DNA of 64,000 bases. Origin: a virus. Below the pieces are notes generated by a model. The model ran no database searches, was not told the origin of the DNA, and saw only the letters and a program-made list of their open reading frames with translations. Below are positions 47,364-56,062 of this stretch, piece after piece. The DNA lies in the IMG/VR virus record IMGVR_UViG_3300045988_126355. One strand, given 5' to 3'. The position numbers and the translations under genes are program-made. Position 1 is the first letter of the stretch, and the number at the start of each line of letters is the position of its first letter.

Positions 47364-47639
47364 TTACATATTTAAAATACCGTTTTTACCAATATGCTTC
47401 TTCTCTTCTTCAGTAGGCCATTCTTTCTTGAACTTACCATGCCACGTTCCAGGAACTACCACCACTTCGTCTCCCTTACTATATTCAATAGCGGCACATT
47501 CAGAACAAAGAGGCTTGCCTTCATATCCCTTTAGCGACTTATCGTAAATACGATTCTTACAAGGTCTTATAAGAGCCCAATAACAGGATGTGGCTGTATT
47601 ATCTATACAGCCACATTTTGAACAAACAAACAAACTCAT
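47364..47639 (-). CDS. Cys-rich zinc-ribbon-like protein (91 aa)
   Basis: CSKCGC...C...C...CSEC. Confidence 0.45.
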   Translation of the reverse strand: MSLFVCSKCGCIDNTATSCYWALIRPCKNRIYDKSLKGYEGKPLCSECAAIEYSKGDEVVVVPGTWHGKFKKEWPTEEEKKHIGKNGILNM

Positions 47640-48499
47640 CCCGCAATCTCCCAGTCATTAGACATAATATCATGTTCGGTTGGATTCCAATTTGATGCTA
47701 CTTTTTGACCTGTATCTATCATCAATATATTTACGTCAAACATACAGATATACTTTTTACCCCAATCGATTCTTTTTATCTTACGACCTAATTTAAGCCG
47801 TTCTAAAGCCTGTTCGAATGTCATGCCATGACGAGGCAGTTTGAGATACTTTTCAAGTCTGTCGGAGGCTTCATTTGGTGTATGGCCATCGTATTCGAAA
47901 GCGGTTTCTCTTTCAGGAACATCAAACAAATCCCAGTATTTGCTTTCATAGTGATTAGATACCTGACCGGTAGGTAGGATCGCCATCACAATAAACCAAT
48001 CATCAGAACCGAAGCATTTTTCTCCGTCGCTGTGTCTCCTTGATTTGCAAACTTCAACCTGTCCGCTTCTGGCTAATAGATTAAAGAAGGCAGCGTTATA
48101 CAACATGCGATACCGATACAATTCATTGAAAGTGTGGTATCCGTCAGAGACTTCTCCCACGTCTACAGGCTTCTTGTTTTGAATACTACCCAAAATATTC
48201 TCTATATAGAGCTGTATTTTATACATACCCATTTCGGTGTGGCCGTATTTGTTCAAGATATTATTGACATCGTATTGTATATTAAAATCTTTTTCAAATT
48301 CTACTTCAGGATGATTAGGATAGTAGTAATCTACTGATGCTTCTAACACAGACTTGATATGCTCTACTATCCTCGTGGCATCATCATGTTTTAAGAAATT
48401 CTTGAATCCCTCAACGAATTTAATATCTTCTTCGATTGTTGATTCGAACTCTTCTTTTGTCATTACTCTAATCACATCTTTAAAATCTTTTAATTCCAT
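47636..48499 (-). CDS. two-domain protein; C-terminal ~70 aa is a DUF2829 (Tad2-like) domain (287 aa)
   Basis: C-terminus MTFEQALERLKLGRKIKRIDWGKKYICMF fits the DUF2829 pattern [MS]F.EAL..LK.G.KV.R.GW...M.I. N-terminal part (SDGYHTFNELYRYRMLYNAAFF) unassigned. Confidence 0.5.
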   Translation of the reverse strand: MELKDFKDVIRVMTKEEFESTIEEDIKFVEGFKNFLKHDDATRIVEHIKSVLEASVDYYYPNHPEVEFEKDFNIQYDVNNILNKYGHTEMGMYKIQLYIENILGSIQNKKPVDVGEVSDGYHTFNELYRYRMLYNAAFFNLLARSGQVEVCKSRRHSDGEKCFGSDDWFIVMAILPTGQVSNHYESKYWDLFDVPERETAFEYDGHTPNEASDRLEKYLKLPRHGMTFEQALERLKLGRKIKRIDWGKKYICMFDVNILMIDTGQKVASNWNPTEHDIMSNDWEIAG

Positions 48500-50270: not shown

Positions 50271-50564
50271 TCAGGTCAGATCCTTCCAGTTTATTTTTTC
50301 GCCGAGGTAATCTTGCACGGCAAGCCATCTTATAAAGGCTACTCCTTCGGGAGCATCCGGATCATCCAAATACATTAACGTAGCTTTCACCAACTCGTTC
50401 TCACATTTGAAGACCTTCGGAAAACCATCCGAATAGTACATTGCAAAGACATATTGGACATCGCCCCATGTCGCTTTATCCGGCTTCTTCGCTCCGCACT
50501 TTTCAAAAATATCTTTTATTTCCGGCTGCTTCCAGATCCTCTTGGATCCATCGACGTTGACCAT
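50271..50564 (-). CDS. hypothetical protein (97 aa)
   Basis: ORF. Confidence 0.45.
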   Translation of the reverse strand: MVNVDGSKRIWKQPEIKDIFEKCGAKKPDKATWGDVQYVFAMYYSDGFPKVFKCENELVKATLMYLDDPDAPEGVAFIRWLAVQDYLGEKINWKDLT

Positions 50565-50657: not shown

Positions 50658-51026
50658 TCAATAAGAACGACCTCTGCCACGTCCGCGACCTCTACGCATC
50701 TGAGGTCCGTCACCGTAGTATCTGTCGTCTCCATAGTAATCGGTCGGGTAGGATTCGTAACCCATCCTCCGGTATTCCCGGTCCTCCATTTCATGACGAC
50801 GTTCGCGCTCTTCGAGCCTTCTTTCCCTTTCTTCCAGCTCGTTTTCGCGCTCTTCCATTTCTTTCATCTTCTCATGCATACCGTAATGGTCGTAAATACC
50901 ACCACCATACCCCATGTACGTCCCATCAGAACGCCGGCTTCTGCCTCTGCCTCCACCTCGTCTGTCTTCTATCTCGTCATATCCAGGATATTCTCTGTGT
51001 CCTGAATTTAAATCATATACTATCAT
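50658..51026 (-). CDS. RGG/RG-repeat and RE-repeat low-complexity protein (122 aa), possible nucleic-acid-binding
   Basis: RRGGGRGRSRR...ERRLEERERRHEMEDREYRR...RRGRGRGRGRSY. Confidence 0.5.
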   Translation of the reverse strand: MIVYDLNSGHREYPGYDEIEDRRGGGRGRSRRSDGTYMGYGGGIYDHYGMHEKMKEMEERENELEERERRLEERERRHEMEDREYRRMGYESYPTDYYGDDRYYGDGPQMRRGRGRGRGRSY

Positions 51027-51033
51027 ATTATAC

Positions 51034-51528
51034 TTATTTCAAACGTTCTACAATTAACTTCTTTAAATCTTCGAATGAATCAGTAAGGTCATTCACCTTA
51101 TTTTCTATACCAGCTATTTTACGATCCTGCTCTCTCGTTTGCTTGAATGCCGGATTGATATCTTCTAATATAGATTCACAAGCCTCTATCTTGGCACGAT
51201 GGGCATCTACGCTGTCTATTATTTCCTGACTGGTGCTTTTTATGGCATTCAGCTCGTTCATAATCGGATCTATGCTGGTAGATAATGTTATGCCCATAGC
51301 CTTAGCCACATTCTGGGATTCCGGGACCGTATAGGTCTTGGTTTCGCCAGTGAGCTCTACCGTCAGATCCACCACGCGGGTCTGCATCGCCTGATACTGA
51401 CCTGGCTGAGGAGGAAGATACCTGGGTTCGGATACGGCTACTACCTTTCCCAATTCGTATTTAGGTACTGTATTAGTATCAAGGGTATGTACCTGAAACC
51501 CTTTCTTCAAATCTGAAAACATGATCAA
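51034..51528 (-). CDS. hypothetical protein (164 aa)
   Basis: ORF. Confidence 0.5.
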   Translation of the reverse strand: MIMFSDLKKGFQVHTLDTNTVPKYELGKVVAVSEPRYLPPQPGQYQAMQTRVVDLTVELTGETKTYTVPESQNVAKAMGITLSTSIDPIMNELNAIKSTSQEIIDSVDAHRAKIEACESILEDINPAFKQTREQDRKIAGIENKVNDLTDSFEDLKKLIVERLK

Positions 51529-51578
51529 AATATTAGTTAGGTGAAAATAGGGTGATGATCTCCATCACCCTACTGAAA

Positions 51579-51992
51579 TCATTTACCTGCTTTAACTTCA
51601 GACGCCTGGGCTGCCGCTACTGGAACACAGCAATCCATTAATCTTAACACGCCACGAACTTTATTGAAGTACAGAAGGCGTTCTGTGCCATTTACCATAG
51701 CGGCACCCGTGACAGCTACGTTAATAGGGTTCACGACATTCACTCCCGTAACCGGGCAACAGGTGTCGGCTCCTACTGTTGAAACTGTGCTGTTTGCCGG
51801 GACCGCAATCTGTACCGGTAGAGCACTTCCGGCTGTGGGGACTACTTGCCTTATCTTAAGAAGGATAAGACCCTCACACGGAAGGGCGATCCAAGCCCGT
51901 GGGTTAATACCGAAGACTGTATTTGTCGTACTGACAATAACATTCTTCGTAACCATCTCATACAACGATCCTATTTTAGAAACACAAGCCAT
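51579..51992 (-). CDS. hypothetical protein with vicinal Cys pairs (DTCCPV, MDCCVPV) (137 aa)
   Basis: ORF; strand chosen for consistency with the block (a competing plus ORF exists). Confidence 0.4.
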   Translation of the reverse strand: MACVSKIGSLYEMVTKNVIVSTTNTVFGINPRAWIALPCEGLILLKIRQVVPTAGSALPVQIAVPANSTVSTVGADTCCPVTGVNVVNPINVAVTGAAMVNGTERLLYFNKVRGVLRLMDCCVPVAAAQASEVKAGK

Positions 51993-52015
51993 ATTAGCCT
52001 CCTTTCTTAATAAAA

Positions 52016-53023
52016 TCAGACAGCAGCGTTGTTATTGCAACATCCGTTGTTACATCCGCATCCGTTATTACAGCAACCTCCTCCGAATACCTGTCCCCAA
52101 GTATAAGCCTGGTAAGGAGAACAAGAGGGGTAGGCCGGGACGGCCGTCGGGCGTAATTGACCAACGATATTCTGGGTTTGTTGCTGAGATAATGCCGAAG
52201 CTGTCAAAGCCGCTTTTTCTTCACGAAGTTGAGCAATAGTGTTCTGCATCTCCCTCATTTCCAACTGACAGAATTTGTCGTTGATCATAACGGTTTGGGC
52301 GTCAAGTTTCGCAGACAAGATATTGAATTGGCTTGTAGCTTGCTCACGATTGTTAGCCAGACCTTGGTTGAGACCGTTCTGCAAGATATTGGTTTGTTCC
52401 AACGTGCGAAGCTGGTTATCAAAACCTTGCTGAGTAATCATTCCCTGAGTCTGGCAAGTGCTTTGATTGATCAACGAACTCAGATTGCAGCAGCAAGAGC
52501 TGATTTGATTTCCTATTTCACAACCTTGTTGTTGAACTGCGTTGATAACAGCCTGAGAAGTCATACCTACCTGACCAGCTACTTTATCAATAGCACCCTG
52601 TACGTTGCAGATAGCGTTCTGAAGTTGAGTAGTAGAACAGTTCAAAGCAGAAGCAATCTGATCTATGGCGCTACGATTACCTTGAATTGCCTGCATCAAA
52701 AGTTCACGACCGTAATCGTTATTCAACTGAGCCGGCAAACCATTGGCACAACAATCACCGCCATTTCCAAAACCGTTACCGAAGCCGCGTCCACCCCACA
52801 GCCAGAACAAAACAATTATCCAGAGCCACCAACCGTTAGCCCCACCGAAACCGTCCTGGTTGTTACGACCGTTCATCAAAGCCGCCACCAGATTCGGATC
52901 CATTTTATTACCACCTATCAAATTAGCAAACATGCCGGGAATCATTGAAAGAAGACCGTTAGTGGCTGCACCACCACCGTTAGCCCCGGCTCCATCTAAA
53001 AGGACGATTTTATCACCACCCAT
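52016..53023 (-). CDS. Gly-rich membrane-anchored Q/N/C-rich protein with C-terminal GGGCCNNGCGCNNGCCNNN tail (335 aa from Met 53023)
   Basis: Gly-rich N-terminus; TM segment WWLWIIVLFWLWGG; Q/N-rich coiled-coil; repeated CC/CCC; terminal Cys-Asn-Gly repeat. Confidence 0.5.
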   Translation of the reverse strand: MGGDKIVLLDGAGANGGGAATNGLLSMIPGMFANLIGGNKMDPNLVAALMNGRNNQDGFGGANGWWLWIIVLFWLWGGRGFGNGFGNGGDCCANGLPAQLNNDYGRELLMQAIQGNRSAIDQIASALNCSTTQLQNAICNVQGAIDKVAGQVGMTSQAVINAVQQQGCEIGNQISSCCCNLSSLINQSTCQTQGMITQQGFDNQLRTLEQTNILQNGLNQGLANNREQATSQFNILSAKLDAQTVMINDKFCQLEMREMQNTIAQLREEKAALTASALSQQQTQNIVGQLRPTAVPAYPSCSPYQAYTWGQVFGGGCCNNGCGCNNGCCNNNAAV

Positions 53024-53782
53024 AATTTTATAGTATTTAATTGTTAAACATACGTGCATGAAGCACGTAACAAAGATCATGATTGCAGGGTGGAACAAGG
53101 CTGAGTTTGTTTCCGATAAAATGGAAGGATTTTCAGTAAAAACGGAAATATAATATACAACGAGTAGTTTTCCCCATTTATGGGTAAAAATTGATAATCA
53201 GCAACTTTCGCTTTTCCTTTTTTGGGTAAAGCGCTGTAAATCAAAACAGGATCCGCATCACTGCGAATCCTGCCTCAACTAATCTAAACTAAAATACCAT
53301 GAAAAACTTTTCCCCACTAAAACTAAAGAACGAACAAATGTATGAAAATACATGCTTTTCACAAAGAATCCGTATCCTGTTCTTTGGTATGGTTAAGTAC
53401 ATGGGATATAGTTCTGATACTTAATCCGGTTTGATTTTGTATCAGATTATAAATATAGGATTTTGAAACTACAGTTCTTAATTAACCTAAATCATTCATA
53501 ATGTTTTTATACATAAGATGAATGCTGTTGTTACGTTTGATGGTACTGATTCTCATTTCCTACTGTTATTAGTTACGTTCGGTTCTTACTTTTTCCTTAT
53601 TTCCATAATCCCTTCCTGAAACTAATATTGCAAACTTAACAAAAATAATTCATAAACAATGAAAATCTAACTTTTCTTGTATGTTATTGATATACGTGCA
53701 TATATAAGAAAAGTGAGACTTTCACAAGCCTCACTTCCCAAATTATAACTATGAAAAAACTATATATATATATATACAAAAA

Positions 53783-56062
53783 TTACCTGCATTCCAATTT
53801 GTTAAGATCATCCAATTCAGACTTGTTTACGGTCATGTCTTGCGTCAAGCCAGATCTGTTTTGGTATGGAGCGTAATCAGTTTCTACCGTCTTAGCCTTC
53901 TGAGTAGAATCGTATTTCACCTCCGATTCGGTTCCTGTCAGATTTTGGTAGATAGAGCCGGAACTACTCTCGCTTACTTTAGACCATATCTTATTACCTA
54001 CTCTTATAAAATTATCATAAATACCTTCTGCTGTTATAACACCATCTTGCTCTACGATATTAGAACCCGATTTTTCTTTTAACAAATACGGGTGCCTGGT
54101 GTAAAAATAGTGTTCAAAATCATTCCCAGCATACGAAGGGTCATACCTCTCCAAATAAAACAATTCTGATAAAGAAGGGTCGGTACTGGTCATGCTATAA
54201 TCAAACAACATCAACCTGTCTTTTCCAGATAAAGATAATTCTATTGATTTCAAAATATCAGGATCATCAGAAATAAGACCCAAAGATGGACCAGGTTTGA
54301 AGTCAAGATACTTATAGGCATTATCATATAATTTTGTTTTATGGAGTTTGTTGTCAAGGTAAGATTGGTATAAATCGAATAAGGATAATGGGTTTTCGCT
54401 ATCTTGTTTTTTGTTCATGTATCGACTATACTCCCGATCCACATCCACGTAAGGAACGTCAAGTACCGCAGGGTGCCCAAACGCCATCCTGGTCATTATC
54501 ATGTCCTCTGTGTTCTGAGAATCCATGAACGATCTGACGTATTTTTTAATGGAAGCCATGAGCGTATTATCATCTACGTTCCGTACTTTCTCTTTATCCA
54601 AAACGCCGTTCTTAAAACAAGATTCAGGATATATTTTAGTAGAAAAATGAGTTAGGTTGTGCTTGGCTAATACTGTTGATATTTGATACATCTCGTTAAG
54701 ATCATCTTTGCTAATCCTTTGATATAGATTATCTCCTACCTTAAGCAATGAATGTTTCTCAAATGCCTCTACTGGGTCTATATCGGATTCAGAATAAACG
54801 ATATTCAAATTATCCATATACTCCGGCAATAATCCAAAATAATAGTCTGTACTATCACCAAGAACATCATCTATAGAAGATGCCAGCGTTGGAGCATAAT
54901 TTACATCATTATGCCTGGCCACATAAATATCAAGATCCAGCATCAAATTATCTATCTTATTCAAAGATTCTTCTGTGCCATCATAAGTTTCCGATGTCCC
55001 TATTATATCTATGCCAAACCACGTACAAGCCTCTTCTATATCCCATATCATGCTTCTTAAATCGGATTCGGTGTCGGCATTAGCCCTATGTAAATAAGCT
55101 GATATACGAGCTCTTAGGAACTCTATTTTGCCGGAATTGTAATAAGAAAGATCTTGTAGCTTAGACAAAGATCTTCTCTTGCCTTCCACCACATCATCCC
55201 CTTCTATGTTTATTACCGGAATCTTATTCGTAGATGAGAACTCATCAAACATAGATTCGGCAAATTCTTTATCAGAAACGAATTTCTCAACCAGTTCAGG
55301 ATATGAATTTCTCAACGATTCAAAAGCAGATGAAAATTCAGAAAAGTTTTTTATGCCGGCTACTGTTTTACGCATAGCATAATAAAGCTCAGAAGGATTA
55401 TATGGTACTTTTTTACCAAATTGGTTAAACACTCCCTCCTTGTAAACAATAGGACCATACTGATAGTCAATAGACATAAAATAATTATCTTTTTCCCTAT
55501 CATGTTCGTTAATAGAAGAATCTATTAACTTTCTCATGGAAGTCGAAACCTCGTTTAAAACAGAAGGATCGGATAAAATACGACTTATTTCTGTTTCATC
55601 ATACAAACCGGATCTCCTTAATTTCTGCTCATTCAGTATCAAACTGCCATCTACATAAAAATCGAAGAGAATAGCATTAGACAATGAAGACGCATTGAAA
55701 AAATAATGAGTAGACAAAAGGAAATCCCTTACATCCTTAACATCCTGAGCCGTTAAAGGATCAGCAAAATAAGTCTGACGCTTCATATACGACAGCACAT
55801 CTTCTAAAAGAGGTTCGCCATTGGGATCGGTGTTAAACATCTCCCCTGGAGCCGGGTTATTCCAATGACCGTAATACGACAAAAAACCAGGAGTGTAAGC
55901 CTTAGCCCATACCTGAAGAGCCCGCTCGCTGTTTCCTAATACTTTTAAAGCACTTTCGTAAAGAACGGAAGGCTCCCCGTTAGGAGCCTTAACCCGTTTT
56001 ATTTCATTTTCCTTTTTTTCTATCTGACATTTGACACCCATAGTGATAAATATTTTAGACAA
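53783..56062 (-). CDS. large virion-associated protein (759 aa), function unknown
   Basis: Long ORF in the late block. Confidence 0.7.
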   Translation of the reverse strand: MSKIFITMGVKCQIEKKENEIKRVKAPNGEPSVLYESALKVLGNSERALQVWAKAYTPGFLSYYGHWNNPAPGEMFNTDPNGEPLLEDVLSYMKRQTYFADPLTAQDVKDVRDFLLSTHYFFNASSLSNAILFDFYVDGSLILNEQKLRRSGLYDETEISRILSDPSVLNEVSTSMRKLIDSSINEHDREKDNYFMSIDYQYGPIVYKEGVFNQFGKKVPYNPSELYYAMRKTVAGIKNFSEFSSAFESLRNSYPELVEKFVSDKEFAESMFDEFSSTNKIPVINIEGDDVVEGKRRSLSKLQDLSYYNSGKIEFLRARISAYLHRANADTESDLRSMIWDIEEACTWFGIDIIGTSETYDGTEESLNKIDNLMLDLDIYVARHNDVNYAPTLASSIDDVLGDSTDYYFGLLPEYMDNLNIVYSESDIDPVEAFEKHSLLKVGDNLYQRISKDDLNEMYQISTVLAKHNLTHFSTKIYPESCFKNGVLDKEKVRNVDDNTLMASIKKYVRSFMDSQNTEDMIMTRMAFGHPAVLDVPYVDVDREYSRYMNKKQDSENPLSLFDLYQSYLDNKLHKTKLYDNAYKYLDFKPGPSLGLISDDPDILKSIELSLSGKDRLMLFDYSMTSTDPSLSELFYLERYDPSYAGNDFEHYFYTRHPYLLKEKSGSNIVEQDGVITAEGIYDNFIRVGNKIWSKVSESSSGSIYQNLTGTESEVKYDSTQKAKTVETDYAPYQNRSGLTQDMTVNKSELDDLNKLECR

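Follow-up and report, generated by a model that had tools for sequence, protein, structure and literature searches.

Two adjacent cysteine-rich late genes of an epsilon-type crAss-like phage and the mobile module to which they belong

We analysed two adjacent genes, p335 and p137 (335 and 137 amino acids, aa), which lie on the minus strand of a 64,000-nucleotide stretch of viral DNA (IMG/VR record IMGVR_UViG_3300045988_126355; this whole stretch is referred to below as the window). The window has a GC content of 38% and comes from an epsilon-type crAss-like phage; it is ~99% identical to csAssE-Sib (OR575929.1, 151 kb), whose counterparts of p335 and p137 are 99.7% and 98.5% identical to them, respectively. 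An earlier note, made from the letters of the sequence alone, described the products as neighbouring Cys-rich late proteins, and these features that it listed for p335 were found: a Gly-rich N-terminus, a hydrophobic stretch (WWLWIIVLFWLW), clusters of two and three cysteines (CC at 91–92, CCC at 177–179) and a terminal Cys-Asn-Gly tail. The gene starts with an ATG at 53023 and ends with a stop codon at 52016–52018. Its product contains 44 Gly, 39 Asn, 36 Gln and 17 Cys residues, so that cysteine amounts to 5.1% of the protein compared with 1.34% across 61 open reading frames (ORFs) of the window (binomial P = 4e-6). In p137 cysteines occupy positions 3, 39, 78–79 and 121–122, which confirms the two vicinal CC pairs reported for it; their number alone is unremarkable (P = 0.011), and both pairs are invariant or near-invariant in 16 relatives with identity down to 58%.

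The note had itself named the weak point of this description, namely that plus-strand ORFs overlap p335 and that the strand could have been wrongly assigned. When p335 was compared with eight relatives, the differences at codon positions 1/2/3 of the minus frame numbered 467/255/1304; counted in the frame of the plus-strand ORF at 52229–52948, the same differences concentrate on its position 1 (876/114/260). Because the differences favour the third codon position of the minus frame, the plus-strand ORFs are antisense shadows; plus-strand coding was rejected on this pattern, and the minus-strand assignment holds. The start codon giving 335 aa is the correct one, and the alternatives giving 354 or 360 aa wrong, since relatives begin with M-G-x-x-GDKIVLLDG. 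Both p335 and p137 are genuine late genes, and p335 is under purifying selection in the minus frame. The two form a bicistronic pair between terminator-like hairpins (Table 1), an arrangement that supports the view that they belong together. A Bacteroides-type promoter pattern was matched 6 times in the window versus 2.9 times expected, and the match upstream of p335 is a candidate only. On either side of p335 the window carries giant structural or cargo-type genes (ORFs of 2191 and 2148 aa).

p335 belongs to phrog_16490 (E = 2.5e-43; residues 37–328 aligned with profile positions 6–284 of 286), and its family is large, with 3285 database matches that fall into 1253 clusters at 50% identity. 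No real match was obtained in Pfam, NCBIfam or PADLOC for p335, p137 or the nearby p122, PADLOC yielding coiled-coil-type noise only (E ≥ 3e-4), and nothing concerning the family was found in the literature on csAssE-Sib, DUF7841 or Bacteroides spanins. In an alignment of 42 diverse members C179 is the sole invariant internal residue and C177 and C178 are nearly invariant (≥90%); the other near-invariant residues are a handful in DPNL..A.MNN, the Gly runs, NNDxGRELLMQAIQGN and QVINAIQ. The CCC motif occurs in 48 of the 52 representatives of at least 270 aa and also in two divergent members, those of phage PD691P6 and of the virus record vir335. Median identity is 46% over residues 37–181 versus 26–29% over residues 182–335. 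As judged from these alignments, the N-terminal half, which holds the conserved DPNL..A.MNN helix, the W/F-rich core, the NNDxGRELLMQAIQGN helices and CCC, evolves slowly, and the C-terminal half and p137 evolve fast; in-frame deletions within the helical shaft were seen among p335 relatives.

AlphaFold2 gave no usable model from a 14-sequence alignment (predicted local distance difference test, pLDDT, 34). From the 42-sequence alignment it predicted helices over residues 64–77 and 103–165 and one helix over 171–290, with a mean pLDDT of 55; in blocks of 10 residues the mean pLDDT is 67–91 over 201–290 and ~40–52 over 171–200. A Foldseek search of PDB with this low-confidence model returned nothing below E = 1. 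Only the 103–165 segment of p335 is amphipathic (28/2000 shuffles), and heptad periodicity over 171–290 is not significant. The Q/N-rich coiled coil of the earlier note thus survives as a long predicted helix, whereas its heptad pattern does not rise above that of shuffled sequences, and a coiled coil is here presumed. A Gly-flanked, W/F-rich hydrophobic core is found family-wide (median 11 aa, range 11–13; strongly favourable Wimley-White energy of the 19-mer, median −11.7 kcal/mol); it follows a conserved segment of 60 aa, and the bias of Lys and Arg between its two flanks is weak (18 vs 9 of 44). A membrane-related role, which the note had considered, is plausible in view of this family-wide core, although the core is just 12 residues long in p335; lipidation, considered there too, finds no support, as no lipobox is present. 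Cysteine counts within the family range from 5 to 18 with no even/odd preference, and complete intramolecular disulfide pairing is therefore not indicated.

For comparison of loci, 185,579 species genomes were scanned with the p335-family profile, which gave 54 loci, and the ORFs of these loci and of phage records were clustered; 56 loci were counted. The clusters of p335, p137, p164 and the DUF7841 protein are called C0, C2, C3 and C1, respectively. The tails of the family are of two types, about half of the members ending in a Cys-rich sequence (...GCGC) and about half in a Gly/aromatic one (...GFWG). The CCNNGCGC tail is lineage-specific and its units are gained or lost between near-identical relatives. 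C2 is present in 45 of the 56 loci, always directly after C0; 15 of 25 C2 members match phrog_31654, and most homologues of p137 carry 0–3 Cys. No signal peptide was detected in p137 or its 44 homologues, p137 has no lipobox, and a search of PDB sequences with its profile found nothing. C0 and C2 proved to be coupled: a ...CGC tail goes with a long, Cys-containing C2 in 13/13 loci and a ...FWG tail with a short, mostly Cys-free C2 in 25/25 loci, i.e. the tail type predicts the C2 type in 38/38 loci (Mann-Whitney test of C2 Cys counts by C0 tail type, p = 1.4e-6). Between the congeneric phages cr52_1 and cr109_1, C0 from residue 161 to the end is 47% and C2 36% identical, whereas identity is 92% for C0 residues 1–160, 91% for the DUF7841 protein, 97% for C3 and 88% for the next structural gene. 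Because both low-identity stretches lie amid neighbours at 88–97%, the C-terminal half of C0 and C2 have been exchanged as one cassette. Given this joint exchange and the prediction of C2 type from tail type, p335 and p137 are very probably physical partners, joined through cysteines; the ...FWG lineages appear to meet the same contact by aromatic/Gly packing. The notion that the two proteins belong together is in this way sustained by the terminators, by the coupling of tail and partner and by the joint swap, but a family-wide importance of the CCNNGCGC tail or of the CC pairs is not supported.

The minus-strand tail (52019–52075) shows, in loci L007–L086, changes of whole units (GCGCNN lost, GCCNN gained) and a Tyr/Cys polymorphism. 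Tandem Repeats Finder detected no tandem DNA repeat beneath the p335 tail.

With its conserved N-terminal part and a C-terminal one that varies and is swapped along with a small downstream gene, p335 recalls lambda Stf/Tfa and T4 gp37/gp38. p335 could on this model be an accessory virion fibre or adhesin that is anchored to the virion by its conserved N-terminus and bears a variable receptor-binding tip on a helical shaft; p137 would serve as tip adhesin or assembly chaperone. Points in favour of such a part are the co-variation and joint swap of the downstream gene with the tip, the in-frame deletions in the shaft of relatives, the accessory, late character of the genes and their Gly/aromatic-rich tails. 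However, the p335 model is all-helical and has no beta-rich receptor-binding domain, its Trp-rich core is strongly hydrophobic throughout the family, and in prophages a lysis cassette and a helix-turn-helix (HTH) gene separate C0 from the tail genes. No homology to fibre or chaperone families was found in Pfam and PHROG-level searches. Furthermore, a docking domain should track the type of virion, and yet the N-terminal half is shared (median 46% identity) by phages whose neighbouring virion genes show no detectable similarity; since this half is common to phages with unrelated virions, it would seem to make contact on the host side rather than on the virion side. Database entries do label p335 relatives in crAss-like genomes, the csAssE-Sib counterpart of p335 among them, 'spike protein/glycoprotein' or 'outer capsid protein/viral fiber'. 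These labels rest on non-significant matches: the best hits of the p335 profile among PDB sequences are heptad repeat 1 (HR1) peptides of coronavirus S2, over ~37 residues and with E-values of 0.025–0.04. With that E-value and an empty Foldseek search of PDB, the spike glycoprotein label was rejected. p335 does resemble S2 in its Gln/Asn/Ala-rich heptad-like helices, its Trp-rich hydrophobic helix and its Cys clusters, but its anchor is N-terminal to the helices, and the likeness is regarded as convergent or compositional. Palmitoylation of Cys-rich tails of the coronavirus S2 kind is not known from bacteria. All in all, we consider a fibre or adhesin very unlikely.

Gene content and order at the 56 loci indicate that p335, p137 and p164, together with one low-complexity and one DUF7841 protein, make up a conserved, horizontally mobile accessory late-gene module. 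Its genes recur in the following order: an HTH gene (DnaA_C-like or HTH_17), C0, C2, C3, an acidic/RG-rich protein, the DUF7841 protein and a ~140-aa HExxH protein; C3 was found in 43 and C1 in 45 of the 56 loci, and in prophages a reverse-strand integrase gene often ends the module. Its carriers belong to three crAss families or are temperate Bacteroidales prophages. In the Suoliviridae cr1_1, cr52_1 and cr109_1 the genes run holin–LysB/FtsL-like–DUF7841–C0–C2–C3, and in the Steigviridae phage cr116_1 the module comes directly after a holin and an L,D-carboxypeptidase. The carriers among isolate genomes are Bacteroidales: Alistipes putredinis DSM 17216 (within a 1.2-Mb scaffold), Paraprevotella xylaniphila, Bacteroides sp. 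ET71 and Parabacteroides segnis, leei and hominis. Firmicutes, Bifidobacterium and Vibrio, which appear as hosts in the names of metagenome-assembled genomes or contigs, were rejected, because every isolate carrier on a long scaffold is a member of Bacteroidales; the loci concerned share holin/endolysin clusters with Bacteroidales prophages. One isolate record is not from Bacteroidales, a 2.3-kb contig of Vibrio olivae, and looks like contamination. Bacteroides phage C3_41T2LP is a cultured carrier of a full-length version, and two further cultured phages (BF503P4 and PD691P6) have divergent ones. Outside this host range, vir335 (BK063680.1, L004 7857–8780) has an evident member of the p335 family, in which CCC occurs twice (SCCCN and KCCCD), and no C2 or C3 homologue; the record is labelled as a Methanomassiliicoccales virus, and its GC content of 58.8% matches that host.

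The earlier note took the genes to be late, and two observations bear this out: they point the same way as the giant structural genes, and Suoliviridae copies contain TAG (Gln) codons in frame. In cr52_1 and cr109_1, C0 has two and C3 seven to nine in-frame TAG codons at Gln positions, and such codons are found also in the holin and LysB-like genes. The recoding in C0 and C3 matches that of the holin and other late genes, is of a kind already known for late genes of these phages, and supports late expression of the module. As a separate observation, C2 and DUF7841 contain no TAG in these cassettes (L144 8776–10757, L145 6967–10826), so that stop-codon recoding differs gene by gene within one cassette.

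crAss001 is the one crassvirus for which a virion atlas exists, and a profile search of its genome found no C0, C2 or C3 (best E = 0.05 for the p335-family profile). cr116_1 is a relative that keeps the core gene order of crAss001, and here the module forms an insertion flanked by the counterparts of gp30 and gp31. Because it is absent from the one and inserted in the other, the module lies outside the core virion of the crAss001 electron cryomicroscopy atlas (PMC10172136).

This matters for the possibility that p335 is a virion-carried ejection (cargo) protein, which would be expelled at infection, insert its helix in the host envelope and help to build a conduit; p137 and p164 would then be co-packaged partners or chaperones. 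The phiX174 H protein has an N-terminal transmembrane (TM) helix and a Gln/Asn-lined coiled-coil tube, and p335 resembles it, as well as T7 gp14 and crAss001 gp45, in being helical, in having one predicted membrane helix and in lying among giant cargo or structural genes, the module of the window being placed between those of 2191 and 2148 aa. Partner proteins without signal peptides and late expression would both suit virion proteins, and the vir335 gene is the first in an operon that encodes large, uncharacterised proteins and lies beside a tail gene. Moreover, the epsilon group of crassviruses, to which the window belongs, has no detectable homologue of gp45, a cargo protein with a predicted TM helix (Bayfield et al., PMC10172136). 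However, the p335-family profile matched no crAss001 ORF, neither gp45 nor gp46, although cr116_1 carries the module on the same core gene order; its N-terminal half is common to such unrelated virions as those of crAss-like podoviruses and temperate prophages; and in prophages the module follows a lysis cassette and an HTH gene and adjoins the integrase. A fast-evolving C-terminus with a co-swapped partner would also be unexpected for a channel former. We therefore regard ejection as unlikely.

The mobility of the module and the exchange of its variable part could be explained in another way, by superinfection exclusion or receptor masking. An anchored stalk with a variable cap would block some variable component of the host surface or of transport and so act like T5 Llp or T4 Imm/Sp, either against other phages or against adsorption of progeny to debris. 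The anchor-like segment would have a use in this scheme, the variable C-terminal half and its partner are exchanged as a cassette, as a specificity determinant would be, and an accessory, mobile module that brings an HTH regulator and promoter/terminator signals of its own, in prophages often beside an integrase gene, would be in keeping with it. However, with in-frame TAG codons in its Suoliviridae copies C0 could not act early; p137 has no export signal, no similarity to PADLOC entries or known exclusion proteins was found, and the conservation of C3 and of the DUF7841 protein would be left without explanation. Exclusion seems to us distinctly improbable.

Table 1. Features of the p335–p137 region, in window coordinates
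Feature	Position	Strand	Description and basis
p335 ('C0')	52016..53023	-	335 aa; ORF, phrog_16490 match and wobble-biased substitutions
Hydrophobic core WWLWIIVLFWLW	52796..52831	-	Codons 65–76, candidate membrane anchor between Gly-rich runs; sequence, AlphaFold2 helix 64–77
CCC motif	52487..52495	-	Codons 177–179; alignment of 42 diverse family members
Predicted single long helix	52154..52513	-	Codons 171–290, ~18 nm if straight; AlphaFold2, 42-sequence alignment
Cys-Asn-Gly tail CCNNGCGCNNGCCNNNAAV	52019..52075	-	Codons 317–335; sequence
p137 ('C2')	51579..51992	-	Small Val/Thr/Ala-rich partner, 137 aa; ORF, conserved CC pairs
p164 ('C3')	51034..51522	-	phrog_28898, E 3.5e-19; small N-terminal domain (inferred beta-rich) and C-terminal helical region
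p122	50658..51026	-	122-aa Arg/Gly/Glu/Tyr-rich low-complexity protein; sequence, positional counterparts in prophages
DUF7841 protein, short form ('C1')	50271..50564	-	PF25223, E 3.8e-9, 37.2 bits (cutoff 25.2)
Terminator-like hairpin right after p137 stop	51546..51574	-	12-bp stem, then UAUUUU; -17.8 kcal/mol, z = -3.7
Terminator-like hairpin after upstream 759-aa gene	53708..53739	-	14-bp stem; consensus scan
Candidate Bacteroides-type promoter match	53335..53365	-	TTTG-N19-TAnnTTTG; ~310 nt upstream of p335, within 680-nt spacer

The neighbourhood of the module often includes lysis genes. Pfam-verified holin, endolysin or spanin-like genes lie no more than 8 genes from C0, on either side, in 32 of the 56 loci. 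In prophages a Phage_holin_4_1 holin and an Amidase_2, Amidase_3 or M15 endolysin are found upstream of C0, the endolysin being followed by a protein with a lipobox plus a transmembrane domain (TMD) at its C-terminus, i.e. the architecture of a unimolecular spanin (u-spanin), or by a DUF6808 protein. Spanin-like genes always co-occur with the module, whether as C6 (lipobox and C-terminal TMD), as DUF6808 or as a LysB/FtsL-like gene. In the lineage of the window an M15 endolysin–multi-TM–DUF6808 cassette is located ~56 kb from the module.

The last gene of these Bacteroidales phage lysis cassettes is of some interest in itself. It encodes either a protein with an LTAC lipobox and a C-terminal TMD or a DUF6808 protein (L119 5568–7093, L100 and others; csAssE-Sib L006 138–1637). 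In the DUF6808 protein an N-terminal anchor is combined with a Gly/Tyr-rich strand at the C-terminus, of which the last residue is aromatic. The two kinds of protein are candidates for disruption of the outer membrane and are apparently uncharacterised.

Spanin function had been among the roles put forward in the earlier note, and p335 could be pictured as an inner-membrane spanin (i-spanin), or as a new unimolecular one, with a sticky tail that takes hold of the outer membrane and helices that fuse the membranes by collapsing. Like lambda Rz, P2 LysB and T1 gp11 it combines an anchor-like helix with long helices, which could span the periplasm, with cysteines for cross-linking and with frequent adjacency to lysis genes (holin and endolysin); spanins use intermolecular disulfides (PMC6139136), and there is a faint resemblance of its helices to the heptad repeats of fusion proteins. 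However, p335 differs from those proteins in having neither a lipobox nor a lipoprotein partner: no ORF with a signal peptide and a lipobox was found in or adjoining the p335 gene, p137 has neither of the two, and p335 also failed the u-spanin test, having no N-terminal lipoprotein signal and no C-terminal TMD. Its anchor comes after the conserved 60-aa N-terminal region, not at the extreme N-terminus, its partner proteins are of a cytoplasmic type, and the window lineage keeps its DUF6808 cassette 56 kb away. The 5–18 Cys of the family compare with a maximum of 6 among 526 known i-spanins and none in u-spanins (Kongari et al., PMC6139136). Separate spanin-like genes are always at hand, and one member of the family comes from a virus whose putative hosts are archaea without a wall. 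A canonical spanin was rejected on four of these points (no o-spanin, i.e. outer-membrane partner; an anchor that is not N-terminal; 17 Cys versus ≤6; separate spanin-like genes), and the spanin proposal of the note falls with it, the lineage possessing a complete holin–endolysin–DUF6808 set elsewhere. That p335 is a genuine spanin of either kind is hardly credible in our opinion.

The explanation that we tentatively favour, while granting it less than an even chance, is that p335 is a late, host-membrane-anchored, thiol-cross-linked stalk-and-cap with a part in lysis or egress. Late in infection the hydrophobic helix of p335 would enter the cytoplasmic membrane of the host, and the protein would oligomerise along the ~120-residue helix into a stalk, in which the CCC layer, the Cys-rich tail and the CC pairs of p137 might be locked by intersubunit disulfides or by metal sites that they share; where the tail is of the ...FWG type, aromatic/Gly packing would take the place of thiol locking. 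The swappable cap, made of the tail and p137, could then contact a variable partner. The module as a whole would act beside the holin–endolysin–DUF6808 cassette as an accessory egress or lysis-control device, and not as the spanin itself. In its favour are the family-wide hydrophobic core, the predicted long helix, the conserved CCC, the late and accessory character of the module, the lysis genes near C0 in many loci, the coupling of tail and p137, and an N-terminal half common to unrelated virions, which points to a contact on the host side. Membrane insertion, oligomerisation, the thiol chemistry and the functional tie to lysis are all steps that we infer from the features of the proteins and their loci.

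Several observations weigh against this stalk-and-cap model. No homology of p335 to any characterised protein was found in Pfam, NCBIfam, PADLOC and PDB searches. The hydrophobic core, at 11–13 aa, is short for an anchor and the charge bias of its flanks weak, and the cysteine number shows no even/odd preference. The partner proteins are all devoid of signal peptides and TM segments, so that they fit poorly with a periplasmic stalk unless they are cytoplasmic or act after holin triggering. Swapping of a C-terminal half together with p137 fits a recognition device better than a lysis protein. In the lineage of the window the module lies among giant structural or cargo-type genes and far from the lysis cassette, and the presumed host of vir335 is wall-less. 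Adjacency to lysis genes is itself weak evidence, since the crAss001 head-fibre gene gp29 is found between holin and endolysin (PMC10172136).

More doubtful is a wider proposition, according to which the family would represent a new envelope device, an oligomeric membrane stalk with a tri-cysteine layer and a swappable thiol- or metal-linked cap, acting at egress or entry apart from the holin–endolysin–spanin triad in Bacteroidales phages and in at least one gut methanogen virus; we would not call it probable. The question has some weight because phages of Bacteroidales, the crAss-like ones included, are the dominant part of the human gut virome, and their entry and exit are largely unexplained. 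With 1253 clusters at 50% identity and with carriers in three crassvirus families and among many prophages, the module is very common. The two proteins of its 'specificity' cassette, which has the invariant CCC motif as its base, are exchanged rapidly. Metal binding by the Cys clusters, or disulfide ladders formed by them in the envelope of an anaerobe, would be biochemically unusual if true. The analysis also removes a misleading 'spike glycoprotein' annotation and defines the module and the coupling of its partners.

Divergent members and the remaining genes of the module show some further features. In BF503P4 (L141 4936–5415) a protein of 159 aa, which has a single TM helix and a DCCGCGEGRGRRGCGCGG cluster, is encoded between a weakly C2-like ORF and a DUF7841–holin–M15 block, and it may be a miniature analogue of p335. 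PD691P6 encodes a 226-aa protein with ADCCCETK, together with C3 and DUF7841, beside holin/endolysin genes. For p164, Pfam searches gave weak coiled-coil-type matches only, and its best matches in PDB (syntaxin-1A, E = 2.4e-4; F0 fusion proteins, E = 0.06) were taken as compositional. p122 has a EERERRLEERERR core and an RGRGRGRGRSY end, and acidic/RG-rich counterparts ('C8') fill the same slot in prophages. In one database protein (P0255) a p122-like segment is fused to a p335-family domain, where it replaces the hydrophobic anchor.

Between the 759-aa gene and p335, the window (53100–53783) is without an insert that is present in csAssE-Sib (L001 10244–11943). The csAssE-Sib insert consists of a small LacI-type HTH ORF and an antirepressor gene (Bro-N/KilAC), and an HTH gene immediately upstream of C0 is also typical of the prophage copies. 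HNH and GIY-YIG homing-endonuclease genes were found repeatedly in or beside the module (L096, L097, L118, L003 and L144), and in three loci such a gene stands between C0 and C2 on the opposite strand. Elsewhere in the window, two accessory genes were named from the csAssE-Sib annotation: that of a DUF2829 protein (47636–48499, minus strand) and that of a 566-aa flotillin-family protein (27773–29473, plus strand), which lies beside the gene of a TM protein.

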